DNA from: Kineosporiaceae bacterium
GTDB lineage: Bacteria; Actinomycetota; Actinomycetes; Actinomycetales; Angustibacteraceae
DNA length: 28,138 nt
Direction of reading: 5' to 3'
Assembly: GCA_027345905.1 (NCBI GenBank)
Contig: DAIETC010000040.1
Location: 1-28,138, forward strand
Notes under the pieces: model-generated
Told to the model about the DNA's origin: nothing
What the model saw: the letters and a program-made list of their open reading frames with translations, nothing else
Databases searched by the model: none
Made by a program: the position numbers and the translations under genes
Shown: positions 1,260 to 16,549 of the stretch, piece after piece
Position numbering within the stretch: the stretch's first letter is position 1
Layout of the letters: each line of letters opens with the position of its first letter

Positions 1260-1264
1260 CCAAT

Positions 1265-1304
1265 CTGGGTGCTGCACTCTCCCGCGGGAGAGTGCAGCAG
1301 CCAG
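1265..1304. repeat. 30-bp perfect palindrome (1270-1299) plus 4 more flanking pairs; probable nrdJ terminator and REP-like element
   Basis: TGCTGCACTCTCCCGCGGGAGAGTGCAGCA is its own reverse complement and starts 11 nt after the nrdJ stop. No U-tract. Its 18-bp core (1276-1293) recurs at 7274-7291 and 7307-7324. Confidence 0.85.
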
Positions 1305-1502
1305 CTGCGTCGAACGTGCCAGGGGGCCGTGTGGGAACGGCGACGGGTGGGCAATGACGACGTGTGGGTCGGTGACGCGGTGACCGGGTAGGTCACGTGA
1401 GGCCGAGGCCTGCCTCGGCGCCGGGGTCCGGCCCGATCATCCCCGTGCTACCCCTCGGTGTCTCACGTCGCTCTGACGCTCGGGGGGCGTGCCACTCGGG
1501 CA

Positions 1503-1525
1503 TTGTCGGTGGGGTGGTGCAGGGT
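1503..1525 (+). promoter_or_regulatory. PafBC-type (RecA-NDp-like) DNA-damage promoter, leaderless, upstream of TM0106 nuclease-helicase
   Basis: TTGTCGGTG (1503-1511)-N8-CAGGGT (1520-1525)-N6-GTG (1532). The -10 has C in place of the first T. Confidence 0.6.
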
Positions 1526-1531
1526 GCAGTT

Positions 1532-4500
1532 GTGCAGCGCATCGAGAACGAGCTGGTCCTCAGCCCCACTGACCTGACCAAGCACCTGGGGTGCCCGCAC
1601 GTCACGACGCTGGACCTGCTGGCGATCGAGGGAAGGGCGCAGCCCGGCGCGGCTGACGACGCCCTCGAGCTGATCTTCCGACTCGGGTTGGCCCACGAGG
1701 ACGCCTACCTGAGATCGCTACGAGCCCGCGGTCTGAGCGTCACGACGATCGAGCCGGCAACACCAGAGGTGAGCCGCGCGCAGCGCGAGCGCGAGACCCT
1801 AGCCGCGATGCAGTCCGGGGTCGATGTCGTCTACCAGGGCACGTTCTACGACGGCGCCTGGGGCGGTCAGGCCGACTTCCTGCTCCGGGTCGAGCGAGCG
1901 TCCGACCTCGGATCGTGGTCGTACGACATCGCCGACACCAAGCTGGCGCGCAAGCTCAAGGTGCCGGCGCTGCTGCAGATGGCGACCTACGCCGAGCGGC
2001 TCGCCGTACTGCAGGGTGTTGAGCCGGACAAGCTGTACGTGGTCACGGGCGACGGGCAGGAGCGGCCGTGGCGGCTCGTCGACGTCGCGGCCTTCGCCCG
2101 TCGGGCACGTTCGCGGTTGCGCGCCGCTGTTGAACAACGACCCGAGACCTCACCTGCCCCGGTCGCGCACTGCGCCCAGTGCCGGTGGATCGAACGTTGC
2201 GTGCGGCACTGGCATGACGAGGACGACCTGTCGCTGGTCGCCTTCATGCGCGCAGATCACCGCGAACTGCTGCGCGAGAACGGCATCACGACGTTGGCGC
2301 AGCTCGGCGTGCTGACCGCCGCGGACCTGCCCAGGCAGATCAGCTTGGTCTCGCGCGAGCGGCTGGTGCATCAAGCGTCCCTGCAACTGTGGGAGCGCCA
2401 GAACCAAGCGGCTAGGTACGACCTGCTCGACCCAGACCACCGCAAGGGATTGCTCAGGCTTCCGCCGCCGGACGCCGGTGACCTCTATCTCGACTTCGAG
2501 GGCGACCCCTACGCCGAAGGGGGCGAAGGCCGTGAGTACCTCGCCGGGCTCGGTGACGTCGACCGCGGCTTCACCCCCATCTGGGCGCACAGCCGTGAAG
2601 AGGAGCGCGAGCTGACAATCCAGCTGGTGGACCGCCTACTTTCGCGCTGGCAAGCCCACCCGGACATGCACGTCTACCACTACGCGCCGTACGAGACGAC
2701 GGCACTGAAACGGCTGGTGGGCAGGCACGGCGTCCGCGAGGCACAGCTGGACCAGCTGCTGCGCGGCGAGCGGTTCGTCGACCTGTACGCCGTGGTGCGG
2801 CAGGGAATGCGCATCAGCAAGGGGTCCTACTCGATCAAGAAGATGGAGGCCTTCTGCTGGGGGCACATACGCAACCAGAACCCGGACGTCGCCGACGCGA
2901 TGGCGAGCGTCGTCGCCTACGAGAAGTGGTCGGTCGAACCCGACGACGTCACCTTGCCCAAGATCGAGGCCTACAACCGCGACGACGTCCTATCAACCCT
3001 CGACCTGCACCGGTGGCTGGAGCAACGGCGCTGCGAGCTCGAAGACCTGCACGGACCGCAGCCGCGACCCGCAGACCAGCCGGCCGACCCGGCCCGGCCG
3101 CCAGGTGAGATCGAGCTCGCGGAGATCGCGTTGTCTGAGAAGTTGCAGGCTGCGGGGGAGGCGTTGTTGGCCGGCCTGGTGCAGTTCCACCGACGCGAGG
3201 CCAGGCCCGCCTACTGGGAGATGTTCCGGCTCGAAGACCTGGACGACGACGAGCTGGTCGACGACAGCGCCGCGCTCGGCGGCCTCACACCGCCCACACT
3301 TGTCGGGACGGCGGCCCGGAGCAAGCTCTACCGGTACGAGTTCCCACCCCAGGACACCAAGCTGCAGATTGGTGACACCGCGTACGACGTGGACGACCAC
3401 AGCTCGGCTGGCACCGTCCACGAGCTGGACGCTGAGCAGGGTTTCATCGTCCTGAAGCGCCAAGCCGCCGCCGTTGAGTCCAGGGGTTTCACCGAGAAGC
3501 AGGTGCTGTCCGACCAGGTGATCCGCCACGCCATCTGCGCCGTCGCCGAAGATCGGCTCGCCGGACGGGGCTGTTTGGGCAGTGCGCTGCTCGACCGCGT
3601 GGCCCCCGCTCGGCTCGACGACGTCGTACCGGCGGGAATGTCGTTGGACGCAGAGGTGCTTGCGGTTCAAGGCCCACCTGGCAGCGGGAAGACCACGGTC
3701 GGCGCCGAGCTCGTCCGGGCGTTGCTCGACGCGGGCAAGAAGGTGGGCATCACCGCGAACTCCCACGCGGTGATCGGCACCTTCATGGAGAAGGTCGACC
3801 GGCCGGGTCTGCAGCGCTGCAACGAGGCCGACCAGTTCTGCGGGGCGCCCGGTATTACTCAAGCACGGAGCTCGGCGGACGTCGCAGCAGCGCTTGGGTC
3901 CGGGCCCCAGCTGGTCGGCGGAACCGCGTGGCTGTGGTGCGACCCGGTGGTTGCTGGCCTACTCGACGTCATCGTCGTCGACGAGGCAGGCCAGTTCTCT
4001 CTCGCCAACGCGGTCGGTGTGTCGCGGGCTGCGACGTCCATGGTGCTGCTCGGCGATCCGCAACAACTCGCGCAACCCACCCGCGCCGTCCACCCCATCG
4101 GCGCGGGGGACTCAGCGCTGGCCCATGTGCTCGAAGGGCACGACACCATCGCGCCCGACCGCGGCATCTTCTTGGACACCACGTGGCGAATGCACCCGGA
4201 CATCACCTCGTACGTCTCGGACCTGTCGTACGACGGCCGGCTGCGGGCCGGCCCCGGCCAGGGGCGGCAAGCCATCGATGCCGGGCCGGGGCTCGTGGGT
4301 AGCGGCATCCGGGTGATCGAGGTCGAGCACCTCGCCAACGCAGCAGCGTCCCGGCAGGAGGTCAGTGCAGTTGTGCGCCTGTGGTTTCGGCTGACGTCCG
4401 GCACCTTCACCGACCGAGAGGGCGTAACAAGGGCCTTGACGCACGCCGACATCCTGATCGTCGCGCCGTACAACAACCAGGTGGGTCTGCTGCGACAGGC

Positions 4501-4783
4501 GCTTCCTACGGCCCGCGTCGGAACCGTCGACAAGTTCCAAGGCAAGGAGGCGCCCGTTGTCATCTACTCGATGACCAGCTCGAGCGCGGACGACGCGCCA
4601 CGAGGCGTCGGCTTCCTCTACGACACGCACCGGCTGAACGTCGCGGTATCCCGTGCGCAAGCCATGGCCATCGTCGTGATGAGCCCGCGCCTACTCGACG
4701 CAGCCGTCGCAACCCCAGATCAGCTGCGCCAGGTCAACGCCCTGTGCCGCCTGGTCGAAGACGCAAGCACCGCCGCCCCGTAG
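1532..4783 (+). CDS. TM0106-family RecB-like nuclease fused to DEDD/RNase H-like exonuclease and SF1 (Dna2/Upf1-like) helicase, about 1083 aa
   Basis: Nuclease GQADFLLRV...DIADTKLARK...LLQMATY; Cys pattern LGCPH...CAQCRWIERC; exonuclease LYLDFEGDP, YHYAPYE, YNRDDV; helicase QGPPGSGKT, VVDEAGQ, LLGDPQQL, TWRMHP, PYNNQV, GTVDKFQGKE, RLNVAVSRA. Start moved from 1397 to GTG 1532 (MQRIENELVLSPTDL), which fits the family N-terminus and the promoter. Confidence 0.9.
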   Translation: MQRIENELVLSPTDLTKHLGCPHVTTLDLLAIEGRAQPGAADDALELIFRLGLAHEDAYLRSLRARGLSVTTIEPATPEVSRAQRERETLAAMQSGVDVVYQGTFYDGAWGGQADFLLRVERASDLGSWSYDIADTKLARKLKVPALLQMATYAERLAVLQGVEPDKLYVVTGDGQERPWRLVDVAAFARRARSRLRAAVEQRPETSPAPVAHCAQCRWIERCVRHWHDEDDLSLVAFMRADHRELLRENGITTLAQLGVLTAADLPRQISLVSRERLVHQASLQLWERQNQAARYDLLDPDHRKGLLRLPPPDAGDLYLDFEGDPYAEGGEGREYLAGLGDVDRGFTPIWAHSREEERELTIQLVDRLLSRWQAHPDMHVYHYAPYETTALKRLVGRHGVREAQLDQLLRGERFVDLYAVVRQGMRISKGSYSIKKMEAFCWGHIRNQNPDVADAMASVVAYEKWSVEPDDVTLPKIEAYNRDDVLSTLDLHRWLEQRRCELEDLHGPQPRPADQPADPARPPGEIELAEIALSEKLQAAGEALLAGLVQFHRREARPAYWEMFRLEDLDDDELVDDSAALGGLTPPTLVGTAARSKLYRYEFPPQDTKLQIGDTAYDVDDHSSAGTVHELDAEQGFIVLKRQAAAVESRGFTEKQVLSDQVIRHAICAVAEDRLAGRGCLGSALLDRVAPARLDDVVPAGMSLDAEVLAVQGPPGSGKTTVGAELVRALLDAGKKVGITANSHAVIGTFMEKVDRPGLQRCNEADQFCGAPGITQARSSADVAAALGSGPQLVGGTAWLWCDPVVAGLLDVIVVDEAGQFSLANAVGVSRAATSMVLLGDPQQLAQPTRAVHPIGAGDSALAHVLEGHDTIAPDRGIFLDTTWRMHPDITSYVSDLSYDGRLRAGPGQGRQAIDAGPGLVGSGIRVIEVEHLANAAASRQEVSAVVRLWFRLTSGTFTDREGVTRALTHADILIVAPYNNQVGLLRQALPTARVGTVDKFQGKEAPVVIYSMTSSSADDAPRGVGFLYDTHRLNVAVSRAQAMAIVVMSPRLLDAAVATPDQLRQVNALCRLVEDASTAAP

Positions 4784-4865
4784 CTCGCGCAGCGTTTGGG
4801 TGCAGTCGACCTGAGCGAACGTCCGGAGGATGGCGGGTGCCCTGCAAGTGAGACCTCACCGGGGC

Positions 4866-5756
4866 TCAGGAGGCAGCGAGGAATGACGTGAAGCGGATCG
4901 CCAGGCGGTCGCGGTCGGGTCGCTCGGCCTTTCTGTCAGGCACGGTCAGGCTCTTGTCGTGCATGCCCTTGAGGCCATGCTCAAGCATCGGACCGTCGAT
5001 CTCATCGAGCAGCCGCTGGTTGATGTGCACCGTGTAACCGGGCGAGATTCCCAGCAGGTTCCGGTCGTAGGCGGCGTGGTGGATCTTGCACAAGCTCAAC
5101 CCGTTGGTCACGAGCGGGTCGCCGGCGCCCAAGGTGTCGCCAATGATGTGCGCGGCGTCCAGCAGGTCGCCATGGCGCAGGGTGCAGACGGCGCATCGCG
5201 TCTGGTAGGCGTGGATGACCCGAGCGCGAAACTCCGGCTGGTGCAGCCGCTGCTGGACGAGCCGCTCGGCGTAACGTCGTTCAAGCGGTGACAGATCGAC
5301 GGAGTTAGCGAGAAACCTCAGGTTCTCGTCGAGGGCGATAAGAAATCGGCGCCGCGGCGCGTCGTCGAACACTGCATAGACCGGCATAACCGGCAGGTAC
5401 CTGCCCGGGCCTAGTTTGCGAAGCAAGATGAGGGGCAGCTGCTGATAGATGGCGGCCCGCAGCTTGGCGTTGTCCCCGTCGAGCGACCCGGCTCGGTAGG
5501 CATAGTGGAACAGTCCGTCGACGACCTCGCTGTCGTCGTATGGGCCTGTCGGTGAGCTCACGATGGACAACGTGGCAGCCAGGTCTTGTGGGTTCCAGAT
5601 GCCGCGAGAGGTGTCGCGAACCCGGCGCACCTGGCCGCCGCCGATGTCCAGCGCATCGAGTTGGCGGTGGGACACCTCGCCTCCGCTGCGAAGCGCGGCC
5701 TCAGCAAGAGCATCCATGATGCGCAGCCGCAGTCGGCGCTCGTCAGCCAGGTTCAC
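4866..5756 (-). CDS. HNH endonuclease with N-terminal SRA-like domain (candidate modification-dependent, type IV restriction enzyme), 296 aa
   Basis: C-terminal RQPEFR-like segment (HQPEFRARVIHAY), CAVC, DAAHII, NGLSLCKIHHAAYD. N-terminal RGI...LSIV..GPYDD...HYAY...DNAKL...LPLILLR resembles the SRA pattern. No methyltransferase nearby. Confidence 0.8.
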   Translation of the reverse strand: MNLADERRLRLRIMDALAEAALRSGGEVSHRQLDALDIGGGQVRRVRDTSRGIWNPQDLAATLSIVSSPTGPYDDSEVVDGLFHYAYRAGSLDGDNAKLRAAIYQQLPLILLRKLGPGRYLPVMPVYAVFDDAPRRRFLIALDENLRFLANSVDLSPLERRYAERLVQQRLHQPEFRARVIHAYQTRCAVCTLRHGDLLDAAHIIGDTLGAGDPLVTNGLSLCKIHHAAYDRNLLGISPGYTVHINQRLLDEIDGPMLEHGLKGMHDKSLTVPDRKAERPDRDRLAIRFTSFLAAS

Positions 5757-5807
5757 GAGAGCTTCCTACCAGATCCCTCAAGCGTCGACCGTGCTGGCGC
5801 GGCAAGG

Positions 5808-5829
5808 TGTCAGTGGCTGAGGTTACGGT
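5808..5829 (+). promoter_or_regulatory. PafBC-type (RecA-NDp-like) promoter upstream of 57-aa ORF and dksA-like gene
   Basis: TGTCAGTG (5808-5815)-N8-TACGGT (5824-5829), intergenic, sense to the downstream genes. Confidence 0.7.
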
Positions 5830-5918
5830 GACGGAACCAAAGTTGGGAGCTGATGTGACCGGTGTGGTGGTCGCAGGCGGCGGGTAACATCGCGCAGGGA
5901 GCACGAGGGAGGGCACTG

Positions 5919-6092
5919 ATGGTCAAGCGCGAGAAGGTGGTGGACGACAGGGGACGGCGGGGGGGCAGCGGCAAGCTGGACGCCGAGGAGCACTTCGAGC
6001 AGGCCGGTCTGTACGGGTCCGCGCAGCCGCGCCGCGACGTGGAGATTCGAATGGCGGCGCTGCACATACCGCGCCGGCGCCAGGCCAGCTGA
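5919..6092 (+). CDS. Small hypothetical protein, 57 aa (MVKREKVVDDRGRRGGSGKLDAEEHFEQAGLYGSAQPRRDVEIRMAALHIPRRRQAS)
   Basis: GGGAGG RBS upstream of ATG 5919; only 5 of 57 codons end in A/T, typical of real genes here; stop lies 13 nt before the next ATG. Confidence 0.65.
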   Translation: MVKREKVVDDRGRRGGSGKLDAEEHFEQAGLYGSAQPRRDVEIRMAALHIPRRRQAS

Positions 6093-6105
6093 AGGCGGCG
6101 CGCGG

Positions 6106-6453
6106 ATGGCGAGGGCGACCCGGCAGCGCCTGGCCGCACGCCTGATTGCGAACGCCGAGCAGATTCGTGGGCTTGAACGCGAGCACAGTGAGATCGTGGC
6201 CGCAGCCCAGGGGGCAAACGGCGACGACGAGCACGATCCCGAGGGAGCCACGATCGGGTTCGAACGCGAACAGGTAGCCGCGCTCCTCGCCCAGGCAGTG
6301 CACACTCGCAGCGAGATCATGCAGGGCCTGGGCCGACTCGATGACGGGTGCTACGGCATCTGCGAGCTGTGTCAGGGCGACATCGGCATCGAACGGCTCG
6401 AGGTTCGTCCCGCGGCGCGCACCTGCATCAGCTGCGCGTCGCGCAGGCGCTGA
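6106..6453 (+). CDS. DksA/TraR family C4-type zinc-finger protein, 115 aa
   Basis: Coiled coil with acidic tip DDEHDPEG, then GCYGICELC...ERLEVRPAARTCISC. Confidence 0.9.
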   Translation: MARATRQRLAARLIANAEQIRGLEREHSEIVAAAQGANGDDEHDPEGATIGFEREQVAALLAQAVHTRSEIMQGLGRLDDGCYGICELCQGDIGIERLEVRPAARTCISCASRRR

Positions 6454-6509
6454 GCCGACATCGGACGCCTTCAGCTCGTCGTGGCGGGGGCGTTGACGGT
6501 TGGGCGCGG

Positions 6510-6532
6510 TTGTCGGTGGTGCGCTCTAGCGT
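6510..6532 (+). promoter_or_regulatory. PafBC-type (RecA-NDp-like) promoter upstream of DUF222-HNH gene
   Basis: TTGTCGGTG (6510-6518)-N8-TAGCGT (6527-6532), a perfect match to tTGTCRgtg-N8-TAnnnT; GGAGG RBS before GTG 6574. Confidence 0.8.
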
Positions 6533-6573
6533 GGCAGGAACGGCGTGGGGCCTGGTGATTTCGGAGGTTTCCT

Positions 6574-8259
6574 GTGCCTGTTGCCATACCTGCTCGAACG
6601 AATGCCCCGGTTCTGACTGATCCGGTTGTTGGTGGGGCCTTGGCCGATCCTGTTGAGCCTGAGCCTGAGCTTGAGCCTGCGTCGGAGCCGGAGCCGGACG
6701 CTGGGGACAGTGACAAGGCCCGGCTCGACGCGATGCCGCTCGGTGAGCTTGAGGCTGAGATCGCCACCCTGGCTGCTCACCTTGCGGCGGCTACCTGCCA
6801 GTTCCTCACGTTGCTCGCCGAATTCGACCTGCGGGAAGGGTGGGGCGGGGCGGGGATGCGCTCGTGTGCCCACTGGCTGTCCTGGCGTTGCGGGATGAGC
6901 CTGTCCACCGCCCGTGAGCACCTGCGGGTGGCACATGCGTTGCGGGTGTTGCCAGTCGCGACCGCCGCGTTCGCAGCTGGACGGCTCAGTTATGCCAAAG
7001 CCCGGGCCATCACACGGGTCGCGGCGCCAGACACGGAGTCGGATCTGGTGGGTATCGCCCTGAACTCGCCGGCCGCACAGCTGGATCGGTTGGTGGCTGG
7101 GCTGCGTCGCGCTGAGAGCTCGGCCGAAGAGACGCAGGCGGCGGATCGAGCCCAGCACCAACATCATTGGGACGACGATGGCACCCTCGTGGTCCGGGTG
7201 CGGTTGAGCGCCGAGGACGGCGCCACCTACCTGGCTGCATTGCACGCCACCCGTGAAGCACTGGACGAGCGCAACTCTCCCGCGGGAGAGTCCCTGGACG
7301 AGCGCAACTCTCCCGCGGGAGAGTTGCCGGGCCCAGGGGCGGGGCCGGCGGACGGCGTGGGTCCGGTGGACGGCGTGGCGCCGGTGACGATGGTCGAGGC
7401 GTTCGTCGCTATGGCCGAAACTGCACTTGAGCACCGCCCTGGGCTTGGCCCGTCCGGACGACGCGCGGAGGTCGTCGTCCATGTGGACGTCGATGTGCTG
7501 ACCACACCGGAGACGCAAGATCTGACCACACCGGAGACGCAAGACGCGGGTGCGGAGCAGGCCACGGCTGCCGGTCTGCGCACCTGCCGTGTACAGGACG
7601 GGCCCGGCATCACTGCCCGGGTGGCACGCGAGCTGGCCTGCGACGGTGGTCTGGTTCTCGCCGTCCGCGGCGGCCAGCATCGTGAGGAGAAATGCGGCGG
7701 CCGCCCGGTGTTCGGCCGCCAGGTGTTCGGTGGCCAAGTACTCGGGGGCCAGGTACTCGACATCGGCCGTCGAACGAGGCGTCCGAACGCGGCAATCATG
7801 CGGGCCCTGTGGATCCGCGATCAGGGGTGCGTCCACCCCGGATGCGGGCGCCGGCGGCGGCTGCATGCCCATCACGTCCGGCATTGGGCGCACGGGGGAT
7901 TGACTGCTTTGCACAATCTCGTTCTGCTCTGCGGTTTCCACCATCGAGCAGTGCATCGCGGCGAGATCGCGATCGAGCTGCGGGCCGGACAGGCGCCCAT
8001 GGTCACGTCTGGCGGCGCCCAGCTCGCGCTCGCACCCCCGGCGCAGGGCCGCGCTGAGGCGATCCGCAGCGCCCACGACGCGGTTATCAACGCGGAGACC
8101 ACCACGCCGACGGACTGGCTCGGTGACCCCCTTCGCTTGGGTTACGCGGTCACGGCCATGCTCGATGCCTGGTCGACGCAGAGTCGCCAGCCGGCGCAGT
8201 GGGGGGACAGTCGGCGGGGCTGGTCCCACGTCCAACGTAGGGTCCGCCACCGGGACTGA
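6574..8259 (+). CDS. DUF222 (13E12-repeat-like) protein with C-terminal HNH endonuclease, 561 aa
   Basis: N-terminal EFDLREGW...SCAHWLSWRCGMSLSTAREHLRVAHAL...GRLSYAKARAITRVA; C-terminal DIGRRTR...RDQGCVHPGC...HAHHVRHWAHGGLTALHNLVLLCGFHHRAVH. Confidence 0.92.
   Translation: MPVAIPARTNAPVLTDPVVGGALADPVEPEPELEPASEPEPDAGDSDKARLDAMPLGELEAEIATLAAHLAAATCQFLTLLAEFDLREGWGGAGMRSCAHWLSWRCGMSLSTAREHLRVAHALRVLPVATAAFAAGRLSYAKARAITRVAAPDTESDLVGIALNSPAAQLDRLVAGLRRAESSAEETQAADRAQHQHHWDDDGTLVVRVRLSAEDGATYLAALHATREALDERNSPAGESLDERNSPAGELPGPGAGPADGVGPVDGVAPVTMVEAFVAMAETALEHRPGLGPSGRRAEVVVHVDVDVLTTPETQDLTTPETQDAGAEQATAAGLRTCRVQDGPGITARVARELACDGGLVLAVRGGQHREEKCGGRPVFGRQVFGGQVLGGQVLDIGRRTRRPNAAIMRALWIRDQGCVHPGCGRRRRLHAHHVRHWAHGGLTALHNLVLLCGFHHRAVHRGEIAIELRAGQAPMVTSGGAQLALAPPAQGRAEAIRSAHDAVINAETTTPTDWLGDPLRLGYAVTAMLDAWSTQSRQPAQWGDSRRGWSHVQRRVRHRD
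7261..7326 (+). repeat. 33-bp in-frame tandem duplication (LDERNSPAGES/LDERNSPAGEL), each unit holding a perfect palindrome
   Basis: Units 7261-7293 and 7294-7326; palindromes 7274-7291 (18 bp) and 7304-7327 (24 bp). Confidence 0.95.
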
Positions 8260-8328
8260 ACCACCAGGCCCCGAAGTGAGCGTTGGCAACTGAACCGACC
8301 GGTCAGATCCGTCGGCCAACAGCTCCGG

Positions 8329-9618
8329 TCAGAATGCCCCGGCGTACGCGAGGTATCCGAAGTATTTGCCAGGCGAGGAGGGGCTGGCGGCGAACCCGTA
8401 GGCAGGCGGCTGGGCGGCCGCGTCAGCGAGCAACTTGGCCTTGACCTGCGCGGGAGAGGACCCGCACTGACCGGCGTCGATGCACAGGACGGCGGTACCG
8501 CTCACGTGCGGCGTGGCCATGCTGGTGCCGGAGATGGTCTTGAAGCCACCGCCCTTCCAGGTGGAGTTGATGCACACCCCCGGGGCGGCGATCGTGTGCG
8601 CCTGGTCGGCGGCCTCGACGGCCCAGTTGGAGAAGCTCGCCGGCACGTCGTAACCCTCGCTGGTGCGGCAGGCTGGCGCACCGCCAAGCGCGCCCGGCTT
8701 CCCGTCGCTGTCGGACATGGCCGTGACGGTGAGTACCTCGTCGTACGCGGCCGGGACGAACCCGGCGAGATCCTTGGCGTCGTTGCCTGCGGCCACGACG
8801 TAGGTGGTGCCAGCGGCCACCGATGTGCAGATGGCGGTGTGCAGCGCGTCGTTCGCGGGGTTGTTGCAGTTCGCGTCGCTAGGGCTGTCGGATCCCGCGC
8901 CGCCCAGGCTCATGCTCGCGACCGCGATCCCGGTGGTGGCGGCGTTGCCCCTGACCCAGTCGATGCCGCAGATCACGGACGACCACGAACCAGAGCCACG
9001 GTTGTCCAGCACCCGCACCGAGTAGATCGGCACGCCCGGGGCCACGCCGACGACACCGAGAGCGTCGTTCTTGGCCCCGATGGTGCCGGCGACGTGGGTG
9101 CCGTGGCCGTTACCGTCGTTGTAGCTGGTGCCGGTGGAACAGTTCTTGCCGCCGACGACGTTCAGGTCGGTGTGCGGCCCGGAGCCGGTGTCGATGACGG
9201 CGACCGCAGGCCCGGTGAGCCCGGCAGCGAACGGCTGCGCCTGGTCGGCGTCGATGCGGTCGACGCCTGTGGGCATTGCCTGCGGTGCGCTGGAGCCGCC
9301 GCCCGGCTTGCCGACAGCCTGGACCGGGCGGTCCTGCGAGACGAACGCCACCCGCGGGTCGCCTCGGACCTGATCGAGTCGGCCAGCTGGAACGGTCGCC
9401 GCGTAGCCCCTCAGCACGTGCCGGTAGACGAAGCCCACCGTTGCGCCGTACGAGCGGGAGTGCTCCCGGGCAACCGCGCCGGGGTCGGCAACGGAATCCT
9501 TCAGGACGACGATGTAGTGCCCAGGCGCCTGATCGCTGGCCTGAGCGGGGGCGAGGGTGACAAGGCTGAGCGCAACCGCCGCGAGGAGGGCCAGCATGGC
9601 AACGAGCCGATGAACCAT
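8329..9618 (-). CDS. Secreted S8 subtilisin-family serine peptidase with I9 prodomain, about 429 aa
   Basis: Signal peptide MVHRLVAMLALLAAVALSLVTLAPAQA; prodomain YIVVLKD; triad VAVIDTG / GHGTHVAGTIGA / SGTSMATPHV; GGAGG RBS before ATG 9618. Confidence 0.93.
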   Translation of the reverse strand: MVHRLVAMLALLAAVALSLVTLAPAQASDQAPGHYIVVLKDSVADPGAVAREHSRSYGATVGFVYRHVLRGYAATVPAGRLDQVRGDPRVAFVSQDRPVQAVGKPGGGSSAPQAMPTGVDRIDADQAQPFAAGLTGPAVAVIDTGSGPHTDLNVVGGKNCSTGTSYNDGNGHGTHVAGTIGAKNDALGVVGVAPGVPIYSVRVLDNRGSGSWSSVICGIDWVRGNAATTGIAVASMSLGGAGSDSPSDANCNNPANDALHTAICTSVAAGTTYVVAAGNDAKDLAGFVPAAYDEVLTVTAMSDSDGKPGALGGAPACRTSEGYDVPASFSNWAVEAADQAHTIAAPGVCINSTWKGGGFKTISGTSMATPHVSGTAVLCIDAGQCGSSPAQVKAKLLADAAAQPPAYGFAASPSSPGKYFGYLAYAGAF

Positions 9619-9651
9619 GGGGACCTCCTGAGGGGGACGACGTCCCTCGTC

Positions 9652-9681
9652 AAGGTAAAGGCTGACCCAACAACGGGTCAA
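9652..9681 (-). promoter_or_regulatory. Housekeeping-sigma-type promoter of the subtilase with overlapping inverted repeat
   Basis: Minus strand TTGACC (9681-9676)-N18-TACCTT (9657-9652); TGACCC-N6-GGGTCA at 9663-9680. Confidence 0.5.
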
Positions 9682-9728
9682 TGGGCCGAACGGTCAATCC
9701 GACGGCGGTCCAGACGCGTCGGTGCGAC

Positions 9729-10604
9729 TCAGGGCGCGGTGAGGGCGAGCAGCCGGTCCTCGAGGTGTTCGAAGATGCCGAGGTGGCCCTCGCCGGTGGC
9801 CTCGATGAGGTGGGCGTGGGGGAGGTGGTCGCGCAACCACCGTCCATGGGCGAGCGGGACGAAGCGGTCCTCGGCGCCGTACCACAGCAAGACGGGGCAC
9901 GCGAGGGTCGTGACGTCCACGTCCCACGGGCCCACCCACGAGACGTTGTCCCATCCGGCGCCCATCGCACCCTGGCGCAGCGACTCGCGCATGGACGCGC
10001 TGAAGGCTGCGGCGAGCCGCTCGTCGGCGAGCAGCCGCTGGTCGGTTCGGGACATGTGGTCGGCGAATGCCGCCACGATCTGCGCCGGGGCTAGTTCGAA
10101 GGTCGGGATCAGCGGCTCGAACCCGCTCGCGAAGGCGCGAGCGACGGCGTCCAGGGCGTCGTGGGGGAGCATGGCGTAGGCGGTGCGGTCGTTCTCGTCC
10201 AGCTGGTCGAGCGACCCTGGAACCAGGCCGAACGGGCCTGGAGCGCTTGCGACGCCGACCCGCGGCACGCGATCACCGAGGACCGCTGCGCTGGCCAGGG
10301 CGAACGGGCCCCCACCCGACTGGCCCAGCGTCGCGAACCGGTCACACCCCAGCTGGTCGGCGACGGCCTGCGCGTCGAGCGCGACCGAGTGCAGACTGAA
10401 GGGGGCCGGCGTCGAGCCTCCGTAGCCGGGGCGGTCGAAGCAGACCAACCGGACGCCGTGCTCGCGCGCCCACTGCTCGCCGAAGGTCAGGTCGAGCCGC
10501 GAGCTGGGTGTGCCGTGGAAGTACATGACGACTCGGCCGTCGGGGGCGCCACCGTCGCGGACCCGAAGCACCCGCCCGGCGCGCCGTAGGTCGATCTCGC
10601 CCAT
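9729..10604 (-). CDS. Alpha/beta-fold hydrolase, 291 aa
   Basis: YFHGTPSSR, FDRPGYGGS, nucleophile elbow GQSGGG, WYGAEDRFVP, GEGHL. Start ATG 10604 lies 7 nt after a TACCCT -10 (leaderless); the longer ORF-track start overlaps the upstream SDR. Confidence 0.9.
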   Translation of the reverse strand: MGEIDLRRAGRVLRVRDGGAPDGRVVMYFHGTPSSRLDLTFGEQWAREHGVRLVCFDRPGYGGSTPAPFSLHSVALDAQAVADQLGCDRFATLGQSGGGPFALASAAVLGDRVPRVGVASAPGPFGLVPGSLDQLDENDRTAYAMLPHDALDAVARAFASGFEPLIPTFELAPAQIVAAFADHMSRTDQRLLADERLAAAFSASMRESLRQGAMGAGWDNVSWVGPWDVDVTTLACPVLLWYGAEDRFVPLAHGRWLRDHLPHAHLIEATGEGHLGIFEHLEDRLLALTAP

Positions 10605-10645
10605 GGCCGGGAGGGTACTCGGGCCGAGCCCGCGGCGGCGGAGTG

Positions 10646-11407
10646 CTACAGCTGGACCCCGCGGGTGAGCGCGCCGTCGACGACCAGGTTCGTGCCGGTG
10701 GTGAAGCTGGACGCGGGGCTGGCGAGAAAGACGATCGCTCGTGCCATCTCCTGCGGTGTCCCCATGCGCCCGGTGGGGTTCAACGCCAGCGCGGTCTCGT
10801 ACAGCTCGGGGTTGCCCGTCTTGATCGAGTCCCACACACCGCCCGCGAAGAACGTGTTGCCCGGGGAGACGCTGTTGGCCCGCACGCCCTGGCCTGCCAG
10901 CTGAAACGCCAGCCCCTGCGTGTAGTGCACGAGCGCGGCCTTGAAGGTGCCGTAGGGCCCTGCGGCGAAGTCGATCTCGCGAGCGGAGACGCTGGACACC
11001 GTCACGATCGAGCCGACACCGCTGGCCCGCAGGTGCTCCAGCGCCGCGTCCACCAGCTGCACGGTCCCCATCAGGTCCACGGCGTACGACGTCGCCCAGT
11101 TCTCGGGTGTGTCCTCGATCGCCAGCGCGCTGACGTTGGAGACCACGATGTCGATGCCGCCCAGCCGTTGGGCGCTCGCGTTCACCCACGCACGGATCCC
11201 CGCAGCGTCGGCGACGTCCAGGACGGTGCCGACCGCGGTGGCGCCGTCCGTGCTCAGCTCGGACGTCGTGGCCTCGACCTCGGCGCCGTCGCGGGCGCAG
11301 AAGGCCACGGCGGCACCCTCGGCCAGGAACGTCTCGACGACGGCGCGGCCGATGCCGCGGGTGCCGCCGGTCACCAGGATCCGTCGTCCGGCCAGCTGCA
11401 GGTCCAT
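10646..11407 (-). CDS. SDR-family NAD(P)-dependent oxidoreductase, 253 aa
   Basis: VTGGTRGIG, YGTFK catalytic motif, VRANSVSPG, NLVVDG; GAAAGG RBS. Confidence 0.92.
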   Translation of the reverse strand: MDLQLAGRRILVTGGTRGIGRAVVETFLAEGAAVAFCARDGAEVEATTSELSTDGATAVGTVLDVADAAGIRAWVNASAQRLGGIDIVVSNVSALAIEDTPENWATSYAVDLMGTVQLVDAALEHLRASGVGSIVTVSSVSAREIDFAAGPYGTFKAALVHYTQGLAFQLAGQGVRANSVSPGNTFFAGGVWDSIKTGNPELYETALALNPTGRMGTPQEMARAIVFLASPASSFTTGTNLVVDGALTRGVQL

Positions 11408-11425
11408 CTGATGTGCCTTTCGTGA

Positions 11426-11507
11426 CTCAGTGCGGGGAATGGCTCAGTGCGGGGACTGGCTCAGTGCGGGGACTAGCTCAGTGCGGGGACTAGCTCAGTG
11501 CAGGGAC
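11426..11507. repeat. 17-bp tandem repeat, about 4.8 copies (CTCAGTGCGGGGACTAG consensus)
   Basis: Units start at 11426, 11443, 11460, 11477 and 11494. The last contains the acetamidase stop codon, and the array fills the intergenic gap up to the SDR RBS. Confidence 0.95.
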
Positions 11508-12496
11508 GCCGCGCGGGCGCGCAGGTCGCGGTGCAGACCGTCGAACGCCTCGGCGGGGGGCAGTAGGGACTTGGGGGCCTTGACCACCACGCTGTAGTTG
11601 GCGTCCACGACGTTGGCGATCGGCGCCTTGGTGATCTGGGAGAGCAGCTGGTAGGCGTCCATCGTGTGCAGCCCGTACAGCTGCTCGAACCAGCGCACGA
11701 GCTCGACCTGGCCGATCCGCCAGGCGTCCTCCAGCGGGCGGCTGGACCCGACGGCCATCCAGTGCTCGTCGTCCTCCAGGCGTGGCCACAGGGGGGCGCC
11801 ACCCTTGATCAGCTCCACGATGAGGGTGGTGTTCATGGCCCCTTCGACCGCGGTGCCGCATGCCTCACCCTCGCCCTGGCGGTAGTGACCGTCGCCGATC
11901 GAGAACAGCGCGCCCTCGACGTTGACTCCCAGGTAGCACGTGCTGCCGGCCCGCATCTGCGGGCTGTCCATGTTGCCCCCGAAACGCTCGGGGACCAGGG
12001 CGCTACGCACCTCGTTCCCGGCCGGGGCCACCCCGACGGTGCCGAGCATGGGTTCCAGCGGCAGCTCGATGACGTGCTCGCTGTGCCGCGCGGCGAACGC
12101 GACGGTCCGTCTGGCGCTGTCGACGTCGTAGATCCAGGTCAGGTCGGGCAGCGCCGGCTGCAAGGTGGCGGTGCGGTCGGTGCTGGTCAGGCCGCCGAAG
12201 AACGGGATCGTCGCGGAGGCCCCGAAGTCCCTCGCGGGTTCGACGCTGACGAAGTGCAACGCCAGGGTGTCGCCCGGTTCGGCGCCCACGACGTAGAAGG
12301 GCCCGGTCTGCGGGTTGATGTAGCGCAGGTCGACCTTCTCGCTGGACAGGTCGGCGATGCTGCGCAGCGCGCCGCAGAAGGCGTCCTCGGACCACAGTCG
12401 CAGGGCGGTGCCCGGTTCGACCCGCAGGACCGGGGCGGCGCCTCCGAACGTGTAGGCGAACTGCTCGAAGGTGGGGCTGAACTCCACGACGTCCAT
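11495..12496 (-). CDS. Acetamidase/formamidase family protein, 333 aa
   Basis: NPQTGPFYVVGAEPGDTL, PMLGTVGVAP, GGNMD, GALFSIGDGHYRQGEGEACGTAVE; leaderless (TAGCAT-N7-ATG). Confidence 0.92.
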   Translation of the reverse strand: MDVVEFSPTFEQFAYTFGGAAPVLRVEPGTALRLWSEDAFCGALRSIADLSSEKVDLRYINPQTGPFYVVGAEPGDTLALHFVSVEPARDFGASATIPFFGGLTSTDRTATLQPALPDLTWIYDVDSARRTVAFAARHSEHVIELPLEPMLGTVGVAPAGNEVRSALVPERFGGNMDSPQMRAGSTCYLGVNVEGALFSIGDGHYRQGEGEACGTAVEGAMNTTLIVELIKGGAPLWPRLEDDEHWMAVGSSRPLEDAWRIGQVELVRWFEQLYGLHTMDAYQLLSQITKAPIANVVDANYSVVVKAPKSLLPPAEAFDGLHRDLRARAASLH

Positions 12497-12544
12497 GGCG
12501 GGGATGCTAGGGCCTGCGCGGTCGGCTCGGGAAGGACGGGCCGA

Positions 12545-13108
12545 TCACAGCCCGGGTGCCCCGTACACGGCGAACCACCGGCCCAGATCGGGTTCGACGC
12601 GAAGGTCGCTGCCCAGCGCCGCCTGGGCCTGCAGCTCCAGGGCGTTGTCACGCCGCTGCGCAGCGGTAGGGGCGAACGGGTACCAGGTGCCACGCTTGTA
12701 CAGATAGATTAGGCCGAGGGGTCGGGCGCCGTCGGTGAAGGCCACCGACGTGCACAGCAGGGACGCCCCGAAACCGCCGTCCTGCAGGCTGGAGTTGACC
12801 GCGTGCAGGTCGGTGACCAGGCCTTCGAGGTCGTCTGGCGTGCTCTGGCGAACCAGCCAGGTGAACCCGAAGCTGTCGACCTGCCGGGTGTATTTGCCGG
12901 TGTCCAAGGCGAGCAGCTGGTCGATCTGCTCGCTGAGGTCGGTGAAGGCGCTGCCCTCGGCGGCCTTGAAGCAGACCGCCCCGGTGCCGGTCGGCGCGAA
13001 CGAGGTCGCCGCCTGCAAGGTGACGGCGGCAGCGGGCAGGGCGAAGAGCTGGTCCAGGCTGGGCGGCACCGGTTTCGAGCGGCCCAGCAGCGCGTCCAGG
13101 AACCCCAC
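12545..13108 (-). CDS. PspA-associated protein PspAB, 187 aa
   Basis: MGFLDALLGRSKPVPPSLDQLFALPAAAVTL, DSFGFTW, LIYLYKRGTWYPFAP...RDNALEL; last gene of the pspA-pspAA-htpX cluster. Confidence 0.8.
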   Translation of the reverse strand: MGFLDALLGRSKPVPPSLDQLFALPAAAVTLQAATSFAPTGTGAVCFKAAEGSAFTDLSEQIDQLLALDTGKYTRQVDSFGFTWLVRQSTPDDLEGLVTDLHAVNSSLQDGGFGASLLCTSVAFTDGARPLGLIYLYKRGTWYPFAPTAAQRRDNALELQAQAALGSDLRVEPDLGRWFAVYGAPGL

Positions 13109-13112
13109 CGGC

Positions 13113-14036
13113 TTACGCCGCCTGGCCCAGCTGGCGCGAGATCTGGGCCATCTGGGCCAGGCGCCGCTCCAGGGTGGGATGGGTCGAGAAGATGCTGGAC
13201 AGGCTGAAACCGTTGGCCAGGGCGGGAGTGAAGAAGAACGCGTTGAACGGCTCGGCGTGGCGCAGGTCCTGGGTGGGGATCCGCGACATCTCCCCGTTGA
13301 GCTTGGTCAGGGCCGCCGCGAGCATCGACGGACGTCCGGTCAGGAGGGCGCCAGCCCGGTCGGCCGCCAGCTCGCGGTACCGCGACAGGCCGCGGACCAG
13401 CAGGAACGACAAGGCGTACACGACCGCGGACACTGCCACGACGAGCAGGACGACGTACGCCGTGTTGTCCTGACCACGACCGCGGCGCCCGCCGCCGAAC
13501 CCGCCACCGGACATCCCGGCGTACAGGCCGAAGCGGGTGATCAGGCCGGCCAGCACCCCGAGGAACGAGGCGATCGTCATGACCGCGACGTCCCGGTGGG
13601 CCACGTGGGACAGCTCGTGGGCCAGGACCGCCTCCAGCTCCTCGGCGTCCAGGCGGCGCAGCAGCCCCGTGGTGACGCACACCACCGCCCGGCTGGGGTT
13701 GCGCCCGGTCGCGAAGGCGTTCGGGACGTCGGTGTCGGCCAGCGCCACCGCCGGCTTCGGGACGTCGGCCAGCGCGCAGAGCCGGTCGATCGCCCCGTGC
13801 AGCGCCGGTTGCTCGGCCGCGGTGACGACCCGGCCGCCCATCGCGTACAACGCGATCCGGTCACTGAACCAGTACTGGGCGAACAGGACCGCTGCGGCAA
13901 CGCCGACCGCCAGGAAGGCGCTCTTGATCAGTGCGATGAGCACCGCGACGAAGACGACGTAGAGCAGACCGAGCAGGAAGACGGTCGCCGCCATGCGCAC
14001 CGTCAGGCCGCGGTCGGGGGCGAACCGGCTCCTCAC
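13113..14036 (-). CDS. htpX: HtpX zinc metalloprotease (M48), 307 aa
   Basis: Two N-terminal TM helices, PNAFATGR, AVLAHELSHV (HExxH), SRYRELAADR, FSTHP. Confidence 0.93.
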   Translation of the reverse strand: MRSRFAPDRGLTVRMAATVFLLGLLYVVFVAVLIALIKSAFLAVGVAAAVLFAQYWFSDRIALYAMGGRVVTAAEQPALHGAIDRLCALADVPKPAVALADTDVPNAFATGRNPSRAVVCVTTGLLRRLDAEELEAVLAHELSHVAHRDVAVMTIASFLGVLAGLITRFGLYAGMSGGGFGGGRRGRGQDNTAYVVLLVVAVSAVVYALSFLLVRGLSRYRELAADRAGALLTGRPSMLAAALTKLNGEMSRIPTQDLRHAEPFNAFFFTPALANGFSLSSIFSTHPTLERRLAQMAQISRQLGQAA

Positions 14037-14040
14037 CGGG

Positions 14041-14319
14041 TCATCCTGGGATCAGCCCCTGGTCGCCGAGCAGCTCGTGGATCTGCGCCAGGTCGATGTC
14101 CGCGGCGGGCAGCACGGCCTCGGATGGCACGAGCACGTCGTCCGCCAGCCGCACGCCGAGCTCGCGGGCCCGGTCGAGCAGGCTGGCGAGCGCGGCACGG
14201 AAGGCGGGTTCGTCGTCCGCGGCGATGGCTGCCTCGAGCAGGGTGTCGAGCTGGTTCAGCTCGTCGACCCCGGCGTCGGGGACCTCGAACTGGCCCTCGC
14301 CCATGATCCGGATGATCAC
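14041..14319 (-). CDS. PspA-associated protein PspAA, 92 aa
   Basis: MIIRIMGEGQF, SEAVLP..D, terminal GLIPG; GTG overlaps the pspA stop (GTGA). Confidence 0.82.
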   Translation of the reverse strand: MIIRIMGEGQFEVPDAGVDELNQLDTLLEAAIAADDEPAFRAALASLLDRARELGVRLADDVLVPSEAVLPAADIDLAQIHELLGDQGLIPG

Positions 14320-15065
14320 TGCTGCGGCCCCTTCTCGGTGTGCTCGATGGCTGCCGGTGCGGCGCCAGGCGGCAACGCGGACTTGAGCTTGGCCAGCTCC
14401 AGCTCGACGGTGGAGCTGGAGGAGATGCGGTCCAGCTCGCCCTGGATGTCGTCCCTGCCCGTGCCGCTGGCGTCCTCGAGCGCACCCGAGGCCAGCAGCT
14501 CGTCGATGGCCCCGGCGCGGGCCTGCATCTGCGCGGTCTTGTCCTCGGCGCGCTGCATTGCCAGGCCGACGTCGCCCATCTCTTCGCTGAGACCGGAGAA
14601 CGCCTCACCGATCTTGGTCTGGGCCTCGGCGGCGCTGTAGGTGGCCTTCATCGTTTCCTTGCGCGTGCGGAACGCGTCGACCTTGGCCTGCAGCCGCCCC
14701 GAGGCCAGGGTGAGCTTCTCTTCCTGGGCCCGCAGGGCCGCGTGCTGCGAAGCCAGCTCGGTCAGCTGTTGCTGGGCTGCCGCGCGGCGGGTCAGCGCCT
14801 CGCGGGCAAGGTCCTCGCGGTTCGCGCTCATCGCCTGCGCCGCCTGCTGCTGCAGCTTGTCGGCCGCGGCGTTGAGCTGTTGGGCCTGCAGCTCCAGCCG
14901 CTTGCGGCTGGTCGCCACATCCGCCACGCCGCGACGCACCTGCTGCAGCATCTGCAGCTGCTTGTCGTAGGAGTAGTCCAGGACCTCGCGCGGGTCTTCG
15001 GCCTTGTCCATGGCGCGGGAGGCCTTGGCCTTGAAGATCATCGCCAACCGGCTGCTCAGGCTCAT
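14316..15065 (-). CDS. pspA: PspA/IM30 (ESCRT-III-like) phage shock protein, about 249 aa
   Basis: MSLSSRLAMIFKAKASRAMDKAEDP, long coiled coil, ARAGAIDEL; AAGGA RBS before ATG 15065. Confidence 0.92.
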   Translation of the reverse strand: MSLSSRLAMIFKAKASRAMDKAEDPREVLDYSYDKQLQMLQQVRRGVADVATSRKRLELQAQQLNAAADKLQQQAAQAMSANREDLAREALTRRAAAQQQLTELASQHAALRAQEEKLTLASGRLQAKVDAFRTRKETMKATYSAAEAQTKIGEAFSGLSEEMGDVGLAMQRAEDKTAQMQARAGAIDELLASGALEDASGTGRDDIQGELDRISSSSTVELELAKLKSALPPGAAPAAIEHTEKGPQQ

Positions 15066-15106
15066 CGCTGTTCCTTGCGCTCGCATACGCCTATGGGACC
15101 GATCAC
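15062..15106 (-). CDS. Possible 14-aa leader/coupling peptide (MIGPIGVCERKEQR) between DUF72 and pspA
   Basis: GTG overlaps the DUF72 stop (GTGA), its TGA overlaps the pspA ATG (ATGA), and a TAGGCT -10 lies 6 nt upstream. Confidence 0.3.
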   Translation of the reverse strand: MIGPIGVCERKEQR

Positions 15107-16002
15107 GGCGCCAGCCTAACCCGATCGACCAGGCGGGCGAGCGCCATCGCGTCGGCTGGGGCGCGGACCTTCAGGTCGTTGTCGAAGTACACGAACACCT
15201 CGCGGGCTCGCACAGGTGCGTCCGGCGCCACGGTCCTTCCCTCGTGAGGGGTCAGACCATTGCGCCACAACGAAATGCGCTGAGCCCAGGCATTCAGTGC
15301 CGATTCGTCGTAACCACTGGCGTAGAGCTCCTCGGCGCCGTGCAGCCGCAGGTAGACGATGTCGGCAGTGACGTCGTCCAGCTCGGGCCAGCGCTGCCCG
15401 GCGTCCGCGCGCACCAGGGCGACGTCGTACGCGCGGAGCAGCTCGACCAGCTCAGTTCCGGCGAAGCTGGGGTGGCGCACCTCGAGCGCATGGCGCAGCG
15501 GCTGGTCGCTCACCGCGACCGTCAGAGCCCGGTCCTCGAGCCGCGCATCATGCTCGCGGGCCAGCTCGGCGGCGGCGGCGCTCGTGCGCGGGAGCTGGGC
15601 AAGAAACGCTTCGACCCGCTCGTCGAACGCGAGCGTCGGTGGCAGCTGCCACAGGATCGGTCCCAGCTTGGCGCCCAGCGCCAACGGACCGGAGGCAAAG
15701 AAGTTCGCGAGGGCGGTGCGCGCGTCCAGCAGCCGCTTCATATGGGTGATGAAGCGCGGTCCCTTGAGGGCGAACACGAACCCGGGTGGCGTCTCGTCGT
15801 GCCAGCGCTGGTAGGACGAAGGGCGCTGCAGGGAGTAGAACGACCCGTTGACCTCGATGCTCGTCAGCTGCGTGGCCGCGTAGCCGAGCTCGTCCCGGTG
15901 GCGCAGGCCAGGGGGGTAGAACACGCCGCGCCACGGCGCGTACGTCCAGCCGGAGATGCCGATCCGCACCGCCCCTGGGTCCACGAACTCCTCCGTCACC
16001 AC
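15103..16002 (-). CDS. DUF72 (YecE-like TIM-barrel) protein, about 299 aa
   Basis: RIGISGWTYAPWRGVFYP, SIEVNGSFY, FALKGPRFITH, LWQLPP, EVRHPSF, YLRLHG, VYFDND. Exact start uncertain (16002 or 15999). Confidence 0.92.
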   Translation of the reverse strand: MVTEEFVDPGAVRIGISGWTYAPWRGVFYPPGLRHRDELGYAATQLTSIEVNGSFYSLQRPSSYQRWHDETPPGFVFALKGPRFITHMKRLLDARTALANFFASGPLALGAKLGPILWQLPPTLAFDERVEAFLAQLPRTSAAAAELAREHDARLEDRALTVAVSDQPLRHALEVRHPSFAGTELVELLRAYDVALVRADAGQRWPELDDVTADIVYLRLHGAEELYASGYDESALNAWAQRISLWRNGLTPHEGRTVAPDAPVRAREVFVYFDNDLKVRAPADAMALARLVDRVRLAP

Positions 16003-16014
16003 CCCTGTCGCGCC

Positions 16015-16036
16015 TGTCGGTGCCGCATGGCAGGGT
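16015..16036 (+). promoter_or_regulatory. PafBC-type (RecA-NDp-like) promoter, leaderless, upstream of DUF5709 gene
   Basis: TGTCGGTG (16015-16022)-N8-CAGGGT (16031-16036)-N6-ATG (16043); same -10 variant and spacing as at 1503-1532. Confidence 0.55.
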
Positions 16037-16042
16037 CAGACT

Positions 16043-16549
16043 ATGAGCAAAGACGACTCTGGCGAGAGCTATGACATCGAGGGCGCCGGCACCTACAGCG
16101 TGGACGACGAAGACCAGCTGCAACGCGACGACACCCTGGTCGACCGCGGTGTCGACGACGTGCTGGACGAGGGCTACTCCCCGCCGGATCGTCCGCCGGC
16201 CGCAGCCGCGTTCGGCACCACGGCCGCCGAGCAGGCTCAAGGTGAGACGCTCGCGATGCGGATGGCCCAAGAAGAACCCGACCCGAACCTGGCCTTCGAC
16301 GACCCGCTGGCTGAGCCAATTGGCGGGGCGGACCAGGACGAGACGGACCAGGGGGACGACGCAGACGCCGACGAGTTCCTGGACGGGCGCGAGGTGGGCG
16401 ACGAGCGGGCCGGGCGGCTGGTCGCGCCGGATGAAGGGGCGCACGAAGACACCGAGAAGGACCTCGTGGCCGGTGATGTCGGGATCGACTCAGGTGCGGC
16501 CAGCGCCGAAGAGGCGGCCATGCACGTGATCGACGAGGAGGACGTCTAG
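16043..16549 (+). CDS. DUF5709 domain acidic protein, 168 aa
   Basis: DQLQRDDTL.DRGVDDVLDEGYSPP and RAGRLVAPDEG...DVGIDSGAASAEEAAMHVID; very Asp/Glu-rich; start at ATG 16043. Confidence 0.85.
   Translation: MSKDDSGESYDIEGAGTYSVDDEDQLQRDDTLVDRGVDDVLDEGYSPPDRPPAAAAFGTTAAEQAQGETLAMRMAQEEPDPNLAFDDPLAEPIGGADQDETDQGDDADADEFLDGREVGDERAGRLVAPDEGAHEDTEKDLVAGDVGIDSGAASAEEAAMHVIDEEDV

Follow-up and report, generated by a model that had tools for sequence, protein, structure and literature searches.

Promoters of the type activated by PafBC are established in mycobacteria and expected in other Actinobacteria, and represent no new kind of element; the stretch of DNA described here raises the question of which genes such promoters serve in a less familiar actinobacterium, and how a gene comes to acquire one. 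The stretch (hereafter the window) is the whole of contig C14 (DAIETC010000040.1; 28,138 bp) of a Kineosporiaceae metagenome-assembled genome (MAG) from mine drainage. It contains four copies of a PafBC-type promoter motif, upstream of a TM0106-family nuclease-helicase gene, a 57-aa open reading frame (ORF) paired with a dksA-like gene, an HNH endonuclease gene, and a DUF5709 gene, which an initial annotation had taken to form a hidden, LexA-independent regulon responding to DNA damage. Our comparison suggests that all four are very probably PafBC-dependent sigma-adaptation promoters and belong to an ordinary genome-wide regulon, in which the TM0106 and HNH genes would be conserved targets and the other two units recent, lineage-specific recruits.

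The published PafBC consensus is tTGTCRgtg followed after 8 nt by TAnnnT – also written tGTCgg(N10)tA(N3)T; its 5′ part spans positions -23 to -28, and a -35 box is lacking. Mycobacterial chromatin immunoprecipitation sequencing (ChIP-seq) and cryo-electron microscopy (cryo-EM) place PafBC on exactly this motif (PMC8635444). The promoters in the window and the genes behind them are as follows.

1503-1525, + strand: PafBC-type promoter of the TM0106 gene; tTGTCGGTG (1503-1511), 8-nt spacer, -10 CAGGGT (1520-1525)
1532-4783, + strand: TM0106-family RecB-like nuclease with RNase_H_2 and superfamily 1 (SF1) helicase, 1083 aa (TIGR03491, Pfam)
5808-5829, + strand: PafBC-type promoter of the 57-aa ORF/dksA-like pair; TGTCAGTG, 8-nt spacer, -10 TACGGT (5824-5829)
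5919-6092, + strand: conserved 57-aa basic/acidic small protein, with a GGGAGGG ribosome-binding site upstream
6106-6453, + strand: DksA/TraR-type C4 zinc-finger protein, 115 aa (PF01258, 30.3 bits), 13 nt after the small ORF
6510-6532, + strand: PafBC-type promoter of the HNH gene; tTGTCGGTG, 8-nt spacer, -10 TAGCGT (6527-6532)
6574-8259, + strand: HNH endonuclease with DUF222-like N-terminal region, 561 aa (PF01844 HNH)
16015-16036, + strand: PafBC-type promoter of the DUF5709 gene; TGTCGGTG, 8-nt spacer ending in TGG, -10 CAGGGT (16031-16036)
16043-16549, + strand: acidic 168-aa protein with C-terminal DUF5709 (PF18970, 85.1 bits)

Four PafBC-type motifs in the window

The window contains four matches, and no more, to TGTCRGTG-N8-YAnnnT (1504-1525, 5808-5829, 6511-6532 and 16015-16036). 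All lie on the + strand, and dinucleotide shuffles of the window average 0.02 matches, with none of 100 reaching four; the four copies first reported are thus borne out. Sites 1504 and 6511 also have the 5′ T that opens the published tTGTCRgtg – hence their starts at 1503 and 6510 in the list – and sites 5808 and 16015 lack it. The bare octamer TGTCRGTG occurs six times, and the two additional copies (at 5547 and 17775) have no -10 box at the correct spacing and fail the full pattern, as had been stated.

Reading of the sequence, a gene call from GC content at third codon positions (GC3), and Pfam/NCBIfam matches together place all four sites in short intergenic gaps and in sense orientation to the next gene, in agreement with their earlier description as lying directly upstream of genes. 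Site 1504 falls between the 3′ end of nrdJ (1259) and the GTG at 1532, site 5808 between an HNH_2 gene (4866-5756, - strand) and the ATG at 5919, site 6511 between the dksA-like stop (6453) and the GTG at 6574, and site 16015 between the start of a DUF72 gene (16002, - strand) and the ATG at 16043. The assembly is supported by a DNA run with even depth of ~10x over 1135-11340, the contigs of which bridge the promoters at 1504, 5808 and 6511.

No LexA box (TCGAAC-N4-GTTCGA) with 0 or 1 mismatch is present in the window, as the initial annotation had also noted, and matches with two mismatches (at 1890, 11685 and 20382) are all distant from the four promoters. A consensus scan of 1200-8500 gave no sigma-70-type -35/-10 promoter. 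A relaxed pattern, GTCRG-N10-YAnnnT, yields four additional matches, compared with 2.3 expected by chance; all four were rejected, that at 10059 being antisense within a - strand frame at 9729-10605 and taken as chance.

The probable regulator and its genome-wide regulon

The assembly from which the window derives comprises 1.79 Mb in 271 contigs (71.6% GC, 62% complete), and its closest named relatives are Actinomycetales MAGs. Both pafB and pafC are present, as two tandem, overlapping helix-turn-helix (HTH)-WYL genes on contig C29, together with pafA (TIGR03686, 760 bits) and two FKBP isomerase genes. The first gives a full-length match to M. smegmatis PafB (7p5x chain AY; 194 bits), and the second matches PafC (7p5x chain AX; 212 bits) as well as the C-terminal half of the fused Arthrobacter PafBC. 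In M. smegmatis PafB, residues R46 and R50 read the GTC triplet (PMC8635444), and alignment to chain AY shows that their equivalents are kept here, in the segment RMFERDK.

Across the genome the motif has 16 matches, compared with none for a reversed-pattern control, and about 12 of the 16, the four window sites among them, lie at gene 5′ ends in sense orientation. Repair genes, classical ones among them, dominate this set: the other genes preceded by the motif are uvrA, thyX, rmuC, and those for an SNF2 helicase, a DEDDh exonuclease/GIY-YIG protein, a DUF222-HNH protein, and a DEAD/ResIII helicase. The matches on C144 and C213 are intragenic, with the latter recurring in relatives as conserved coding sequence, and the match on C13 is inside the 3′ end of a gene. 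Of the ~12 good sites, 7 have their start codon 6-7 nt beyond the -10 box, implying leaderless mRNAs, and the same geometry is seen in many M. tuberculosis PafBC candidates (Table S7, PMC8151990). To describe the regulon as hidden was therefore an overstatement: the window sites are four of about 12 good ones in an ordinary PafBC regulon, and HNH targets of the 13E12 type have been published.

The motif is likewise strongly enriched over the reversed control in all of 40 relatives (14 of the same family, the rest of the same order), with examples of 62 against 0, 59 against 1 and 54 against 0 matches; the control itself gives ~0.5 matches per Mb at any position. Many of the relatives' matches have a C-first -10 box with TGG or GTG in front of it.

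One further site in this genome looks like a dual PafBC/LexA promoter. On contig C60 (L004; 244-291, - strand), TGTCGGTG-N8-TACATT is followed directly by the LexA box TCGAACGTGTGTTCGA, the only perfect one in the assembly, with a leader of ~250 nt and an ORF cut by the contig end. Dual PafBC/LexA control has been reported for mycobacterial recA and imuA′.

As a separate observation, the DUF222-HNH promoter on contig C181 (L009; ~2501-2528) holds a near-LexA box, TCGAATGTATGTTCTA, within its spacer and -10 box, and a near-identical 22-mer with TCGAAC precedes HNH genes in two genomes of other families (G040 and G015).

We infer PafBC binding, transcription start sites (TSSs) and damage induction at the window promoters by analogy with mycobacteria. 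In such a scheme, DNA damage would expose single-stranded DNA and lead to activation of the PafB/PafC heterodimer; the PafB HTH would read the GTC triplet and PafC would contact region 4 of SigA, so that the -26 element (tGTCgg) replaces a -35 box and acts with the -10 box on the housekeeping (SigA) form of RNA polymerase. Transcription would begin ~7 nt after the -10 box. The mRNAs of TM0106 and DUF5709 are accordingly predicted to be leaderless, with TSSs at ~1532 (the G of the GTG start) and ~16043 (the A of the ATG), respectively, both start codons lying 6 nt beyond the -10 box, and the other two units leadered. At site 5808, the motif ends 89 nt before the ATG, giving a predicted TSS at ~5836 and a leader of ~83 nt. 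Rfam matches nothing in the window, so that this promoter is followed by no known leader or riboswitch. At site 6511 the predicted TSS is at ~6539, with a 35-nt leader, 41 nt from the -10 box to the GTG at 6574, and a GGAGG site before that codon.

TM0106 and HNH genes as probable conserved targets

The match of the TM0106 protein to TIGR03491 is secure (249.9 bits, with a cut-off of 97.45), and Pfam identifies RNase_H_2, AAA_11, AAA_12 and AAA_30 in it. The gene is patchily distributed: it was found in none of the 14 same-family genomes but in eight further families of the order, where the motif stands upstream of five of six orthologues. Among named genomes, TGTC-N12-YAnnnT lies within 250 nt upstream of 23 of 37 actinobacterial TM0106 orthologues, compared with none of 33 from Bacteroidota, Myxococcota, Proteobacteria and other phyla. 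The 23 positives are not independent, since many share a genus, but they span at least eight genera or families; they include Microbacterium, Cryobacterium, Homoserinimonas and Nocardioides, plus several MAGs. In the same set of loci, background matches number 2 in 37 antisense windows and 4 in 370 intragenic ones. Two additional actinobacterial orthologues have one-base variants of the motif. By this test on its orthologues TM0106 is a conserved, if predicted, PafBC target. We found no literature on TM0106 function, and the actinobacteria-specific site before it provides a lead towards a role in DNA repair or in nuclease activity triggered by damage. Rv1251c, a possible homologue, was not induced in M. 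tuberculosis data.

In the nearest relative (L091) the site recurs 6 nt ahead of the TM0106 start, and homology between the two (88% nucleotide identity) is limited to window positions 1495-4764, that is, to the promoter and the TM0106 gene, with both flanks unrelated. The gene and its promoter together look like a mobile or recombining cassette.

The HNH gene had been labelled DUF222-HNH, a name of which the HNH part is confirmed (PF01844). Pfam finds HNH only in 6574-8259 and no DUF222, although the description DUF222-like is a fair one, because residues 78-478 align with the genome's own DUF222-HNH protein (BLASTP, E 6e-20). HNH homologues are multi-copy in relatives, with up to 17 per genome, and the motif is present at 16 of 30 of their loci, in most cases with 6 nt between it and the start; six of the 30 loci are truncated at the 5′ end. 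HNH genes of the M. tuberculosis 13E12 family have been published as PafBC candidates or as having an SOS box (PMC8151990), and the HNH gene is, as far as its sequence indicates, a conserved PafBC target of a sort already known from that family.

The DksA-like and DUF5709 units

The 57-aa protein has no family match in Pfam, NCBIfam or PADLOC, and homologues of 53-55 aa with ribosome-binding sites of their own in three relatives (G001, G002 and G010) indicate a real conserved protein. NCBIfam matches of the DksA-like protein to DksA_like and yteA fall below their cut-offs.

The DUF5709 family was found in 175 of the 301 genomes sampled from the class, a tally that includes five flagged as unpublished (G208, G231, G233, G237 and G244). 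No statement on sequence made here depends on those five, and the 29 class-level loci scanned for the motif belong to others. Literature searches for a DUF5709 function found nothing. In orthologues across the order, a TGGCAGGsT extended -10-like box is kept together with a leaderless ATG 6-9 nt downstream (window 16028-16045; L019-L037). The -26 element is not kept, the octamer alone being new in this genome. This putative TGGCAGGsT promoter is thus conserved independently of PafBC, and DUF5709 may be a clear case in nature of the expansion of an activator regulon, with a new -26 element joining an old -10 box and leaderless start. The combination suggests growth by acquisition of an octamer 8 nt upstream of an existing leaderless -10 box, and the DksA-like unit, too, would have been recruited through gain of a -26 element upstream of its -10 box.

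In the closest genus (g4; G003:C40, G008:C219 and G011:C42) the DksA-like gene and DUF5709 share a strand, with the former ~1 kb upstream. The two are 10 kb apart in the window, separated by the HNH gene and a - strand block that encodes a subtilase, the frame at 9729-10605, an SDR, FmdA/AmdA, PspAB, an M48 peptidase, PspA and DUF72; the greater distance points to an insertion or rearrangement.

Weighing the explanations

Several observations count against the view that PafBC acts at all four sites. The reference PafBC target, recA, whose promoter would have served as a positive control, is absent from the 62%-complete assembly. The only RNA runs, metatranscriptomes of the same mine-drainage study, cover a 0.00 share of the stretch and match it in spurious pieces of 18-48 nt only. 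Two of the four -10 boxes (sites 1504 and 16015) are CAGGGT and begin with C, unlike the published TAnnnT; the form (T/C)AnnnT given in the initial annotation covers them, and C-first variants also occur in the M. tuberculosis candidate Rv1482c and at many sites of relatives. The expectation that the motif would recur before orthologues, which holds for TM0106 and HNH, fails for the other two families. The motif precedes none of 29 order-level DUF5709 loci of relatives, and 29 class-level loci have no good match, with weak, non-TGTC ones only. Among relatives it precedes 1 of 29 DksA-like orthologues (in G020, with leaderless geometry), and that genome is the sole positive among 16 DksA-like loci of its own family; the small-ORF homologues in G001, G002 and G010 have a -10 box of the TATCAT type, no PafBC motif, and no dksA neighbour.

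The lack of the motif before these orthologues would suit a narrower explanation, that the TM0106 and HNH sites alone work and that the small-ORF/DksA-like and DUF5709 sites are young, fortuitous matches of little or no regulatory effect. Sites 5808 and 16015 are also the two without the 5′ T of tTGTCRgtg, and the presence of the DUF5709 -10 box and leaderless start in relatives that lack the -26 element means that expression needs no PafBC. However, an exact octamer at the exact 8-nt spacing, in sense orientation and beside a start codon, is very unlikely to arise by chance when the reversed control gives no match here and ~0.5 per Mb in relatives and the promoter-proximal fraction of the genome is small; two such accidents within one 28-kb contig are less likely still. 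We therefore consider this explanation unlikely. An artefact of composition or repeats, in which none of the matches has promoter function, could be imagined in a genome of 71.6% GC where a few intragenic matches (C144 and C213) resemble conserved coding sequence, but has a negligible claim: it is already effectively refuted by the shuffles (4 observed against 0.02) and by the reversed-pattern control, which is near zero in 41 genomes, and it does not account for sense sites at gene starts, leaderless geometry, and repair-gene targets.

The motif might instead be a genuine damage-response element read by a different regulator. The genome encodes two more WYL-domain ORFs, on contigs C119 and C100, and a 2011 study is reported to have attributed recognition of RecA-NDp to ClgR, which weighs against PafBC. 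Against this, the motif is the mycobacterial consensus base for base, the mycobacterial ChIP-seq and cryo-EM data put PafBC on it, and the equivalents of R46 and R50 are kept; we regard ClgR or either WYL protein as a very improbable reader of these sites.

PafBC-dependent promoters at all four sites, with two conserved and two recently recruited targets, thus remain by a wide measure the explanation we favour, on the strength of the motif and its geometry, the regulator genes, the regulon context and conservation. The core of the proposed LexA-independent co-regulation stands at this level, with pafBC beside pafA, the DNA-reading arginines, sites before repair genes, the relatives, and the lack of an SOS box in agreement. 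Its extension to a link of the TM0106, DksA-like and DUF5709 genes with the damage response holds for TM0106 and, for want of motif conservation, does not reach beyond this genome for the other two; since their orthologues lack the motif, the link is at most a feature of this genome and not of the families, and no damage-response annotation of the DUF5709 and DksA-like families is warranted from it. Somewhat more speculatively, and with slightly less than even confidence, we suggest that TM0106 (Dna2-like) may be a widespread, previously unlisted PafBC member in Actinomycetales that travels as a gene-plus-promoter cassette, that the regulon may grow by gain of TGTCGGTG 8 nt upstream of leaderless -10 boxes, and that two units of the window may be newly recruited, which would bring a factor of the RNA-polymerase secondary channel (DksA/TraR-type) under damage control. 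The lasting value of the locus lies in the comparative-genomic link of the TM0106 family to the actinobacterial damage response.

Other features of the window

Between two of the PafBC promoters lies a stand-alone HNH_2 endonuclease gene (4866-5756, - strand) that has no PafBC motif of its own, and whose product resembles phosphorothioated-DNA-binding restriction endonucleases (NF045808, 59.9 bits, below the cut-off of 180). An anti-phage role for the nuclease cluster was considered and rejected: the only matches in PADLOC are to the generic C-terminal domain of SF1 helicases (Mokosh MkoA/MkoC, DpdJ) and to a generic HNH, with none for the other four proteins, so that a defence-island reading, with no evidence of membership, is unsupported.

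Directly after the nrdJ stop is a long, perfect, GC-rich palindrome (1268-1300) that is terminator-like. An envelope-stress cluster of PspA/IM30, M48 peptidase and PspAB (PF22742) occupies 12545-15086 on the - strand, and the frame at 9729-10605 (- strand) appears coding and was missed by the GC3 gene caller.

Comparison with known systems

The closest counterparts are the mycobacterial PafBC promoters (RecA-NDp/P1), with which the window sites share the -26 element, the 8-nt spacing to the -10 box, and the lack of a -35 box (in the scan of 1200-8500); the genomes share pafBC beside pafA, the conserved arginines, start codons often 6-8 nt after the -10 box, and the motif before uvrA and further repair genes. 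They differ in the host, here an uncultured member of the Actinomycetales recovered as a MAG from mine drainage and not a Mycobacterium, in the CAGGGT form of two -10 boxes, and in that the promoters here are predicted ones. In the searchable parts of the mycobacterial PafBC tables, TM0106, the DksA-like gene with its small ORF, and DUF5709 were not found, and DksA and TraR are absent from the searchable parts of the mycobacterial supplement.

The M. tuberculosis 13E12 (DUF222-HNH) genes resemble the HNH unit in combining HNH with a DUF222-type N-terminus directly behind TGTCRGTG-N8-TAnnnT, and in being multi-copy in relatives and often leaderless. The window copy differs in that its N-terminus is not DUF222 by Pfam and its predicted transcript has a 35-nt leader and a ribosome-binding site rather than being leaderless.

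Actinobacterial LexA/SOS promoters (TCGAAC-N4-GTTCGA) also serve the DNA-damage response, and the C60 promoter combines both elements. Within the window, however, there is no SOS box (0-1 mismatch), and regulation would, by analogy, be through activation and not de-repression. In this respect Caulobacter DriD follows the same logic, being a WYL activator that is switched on by single-stranded DNA and controls damage genes independently of LexA, although it is a homodimer with another target site and promoter architecture, and is not a PafBC orthologue.

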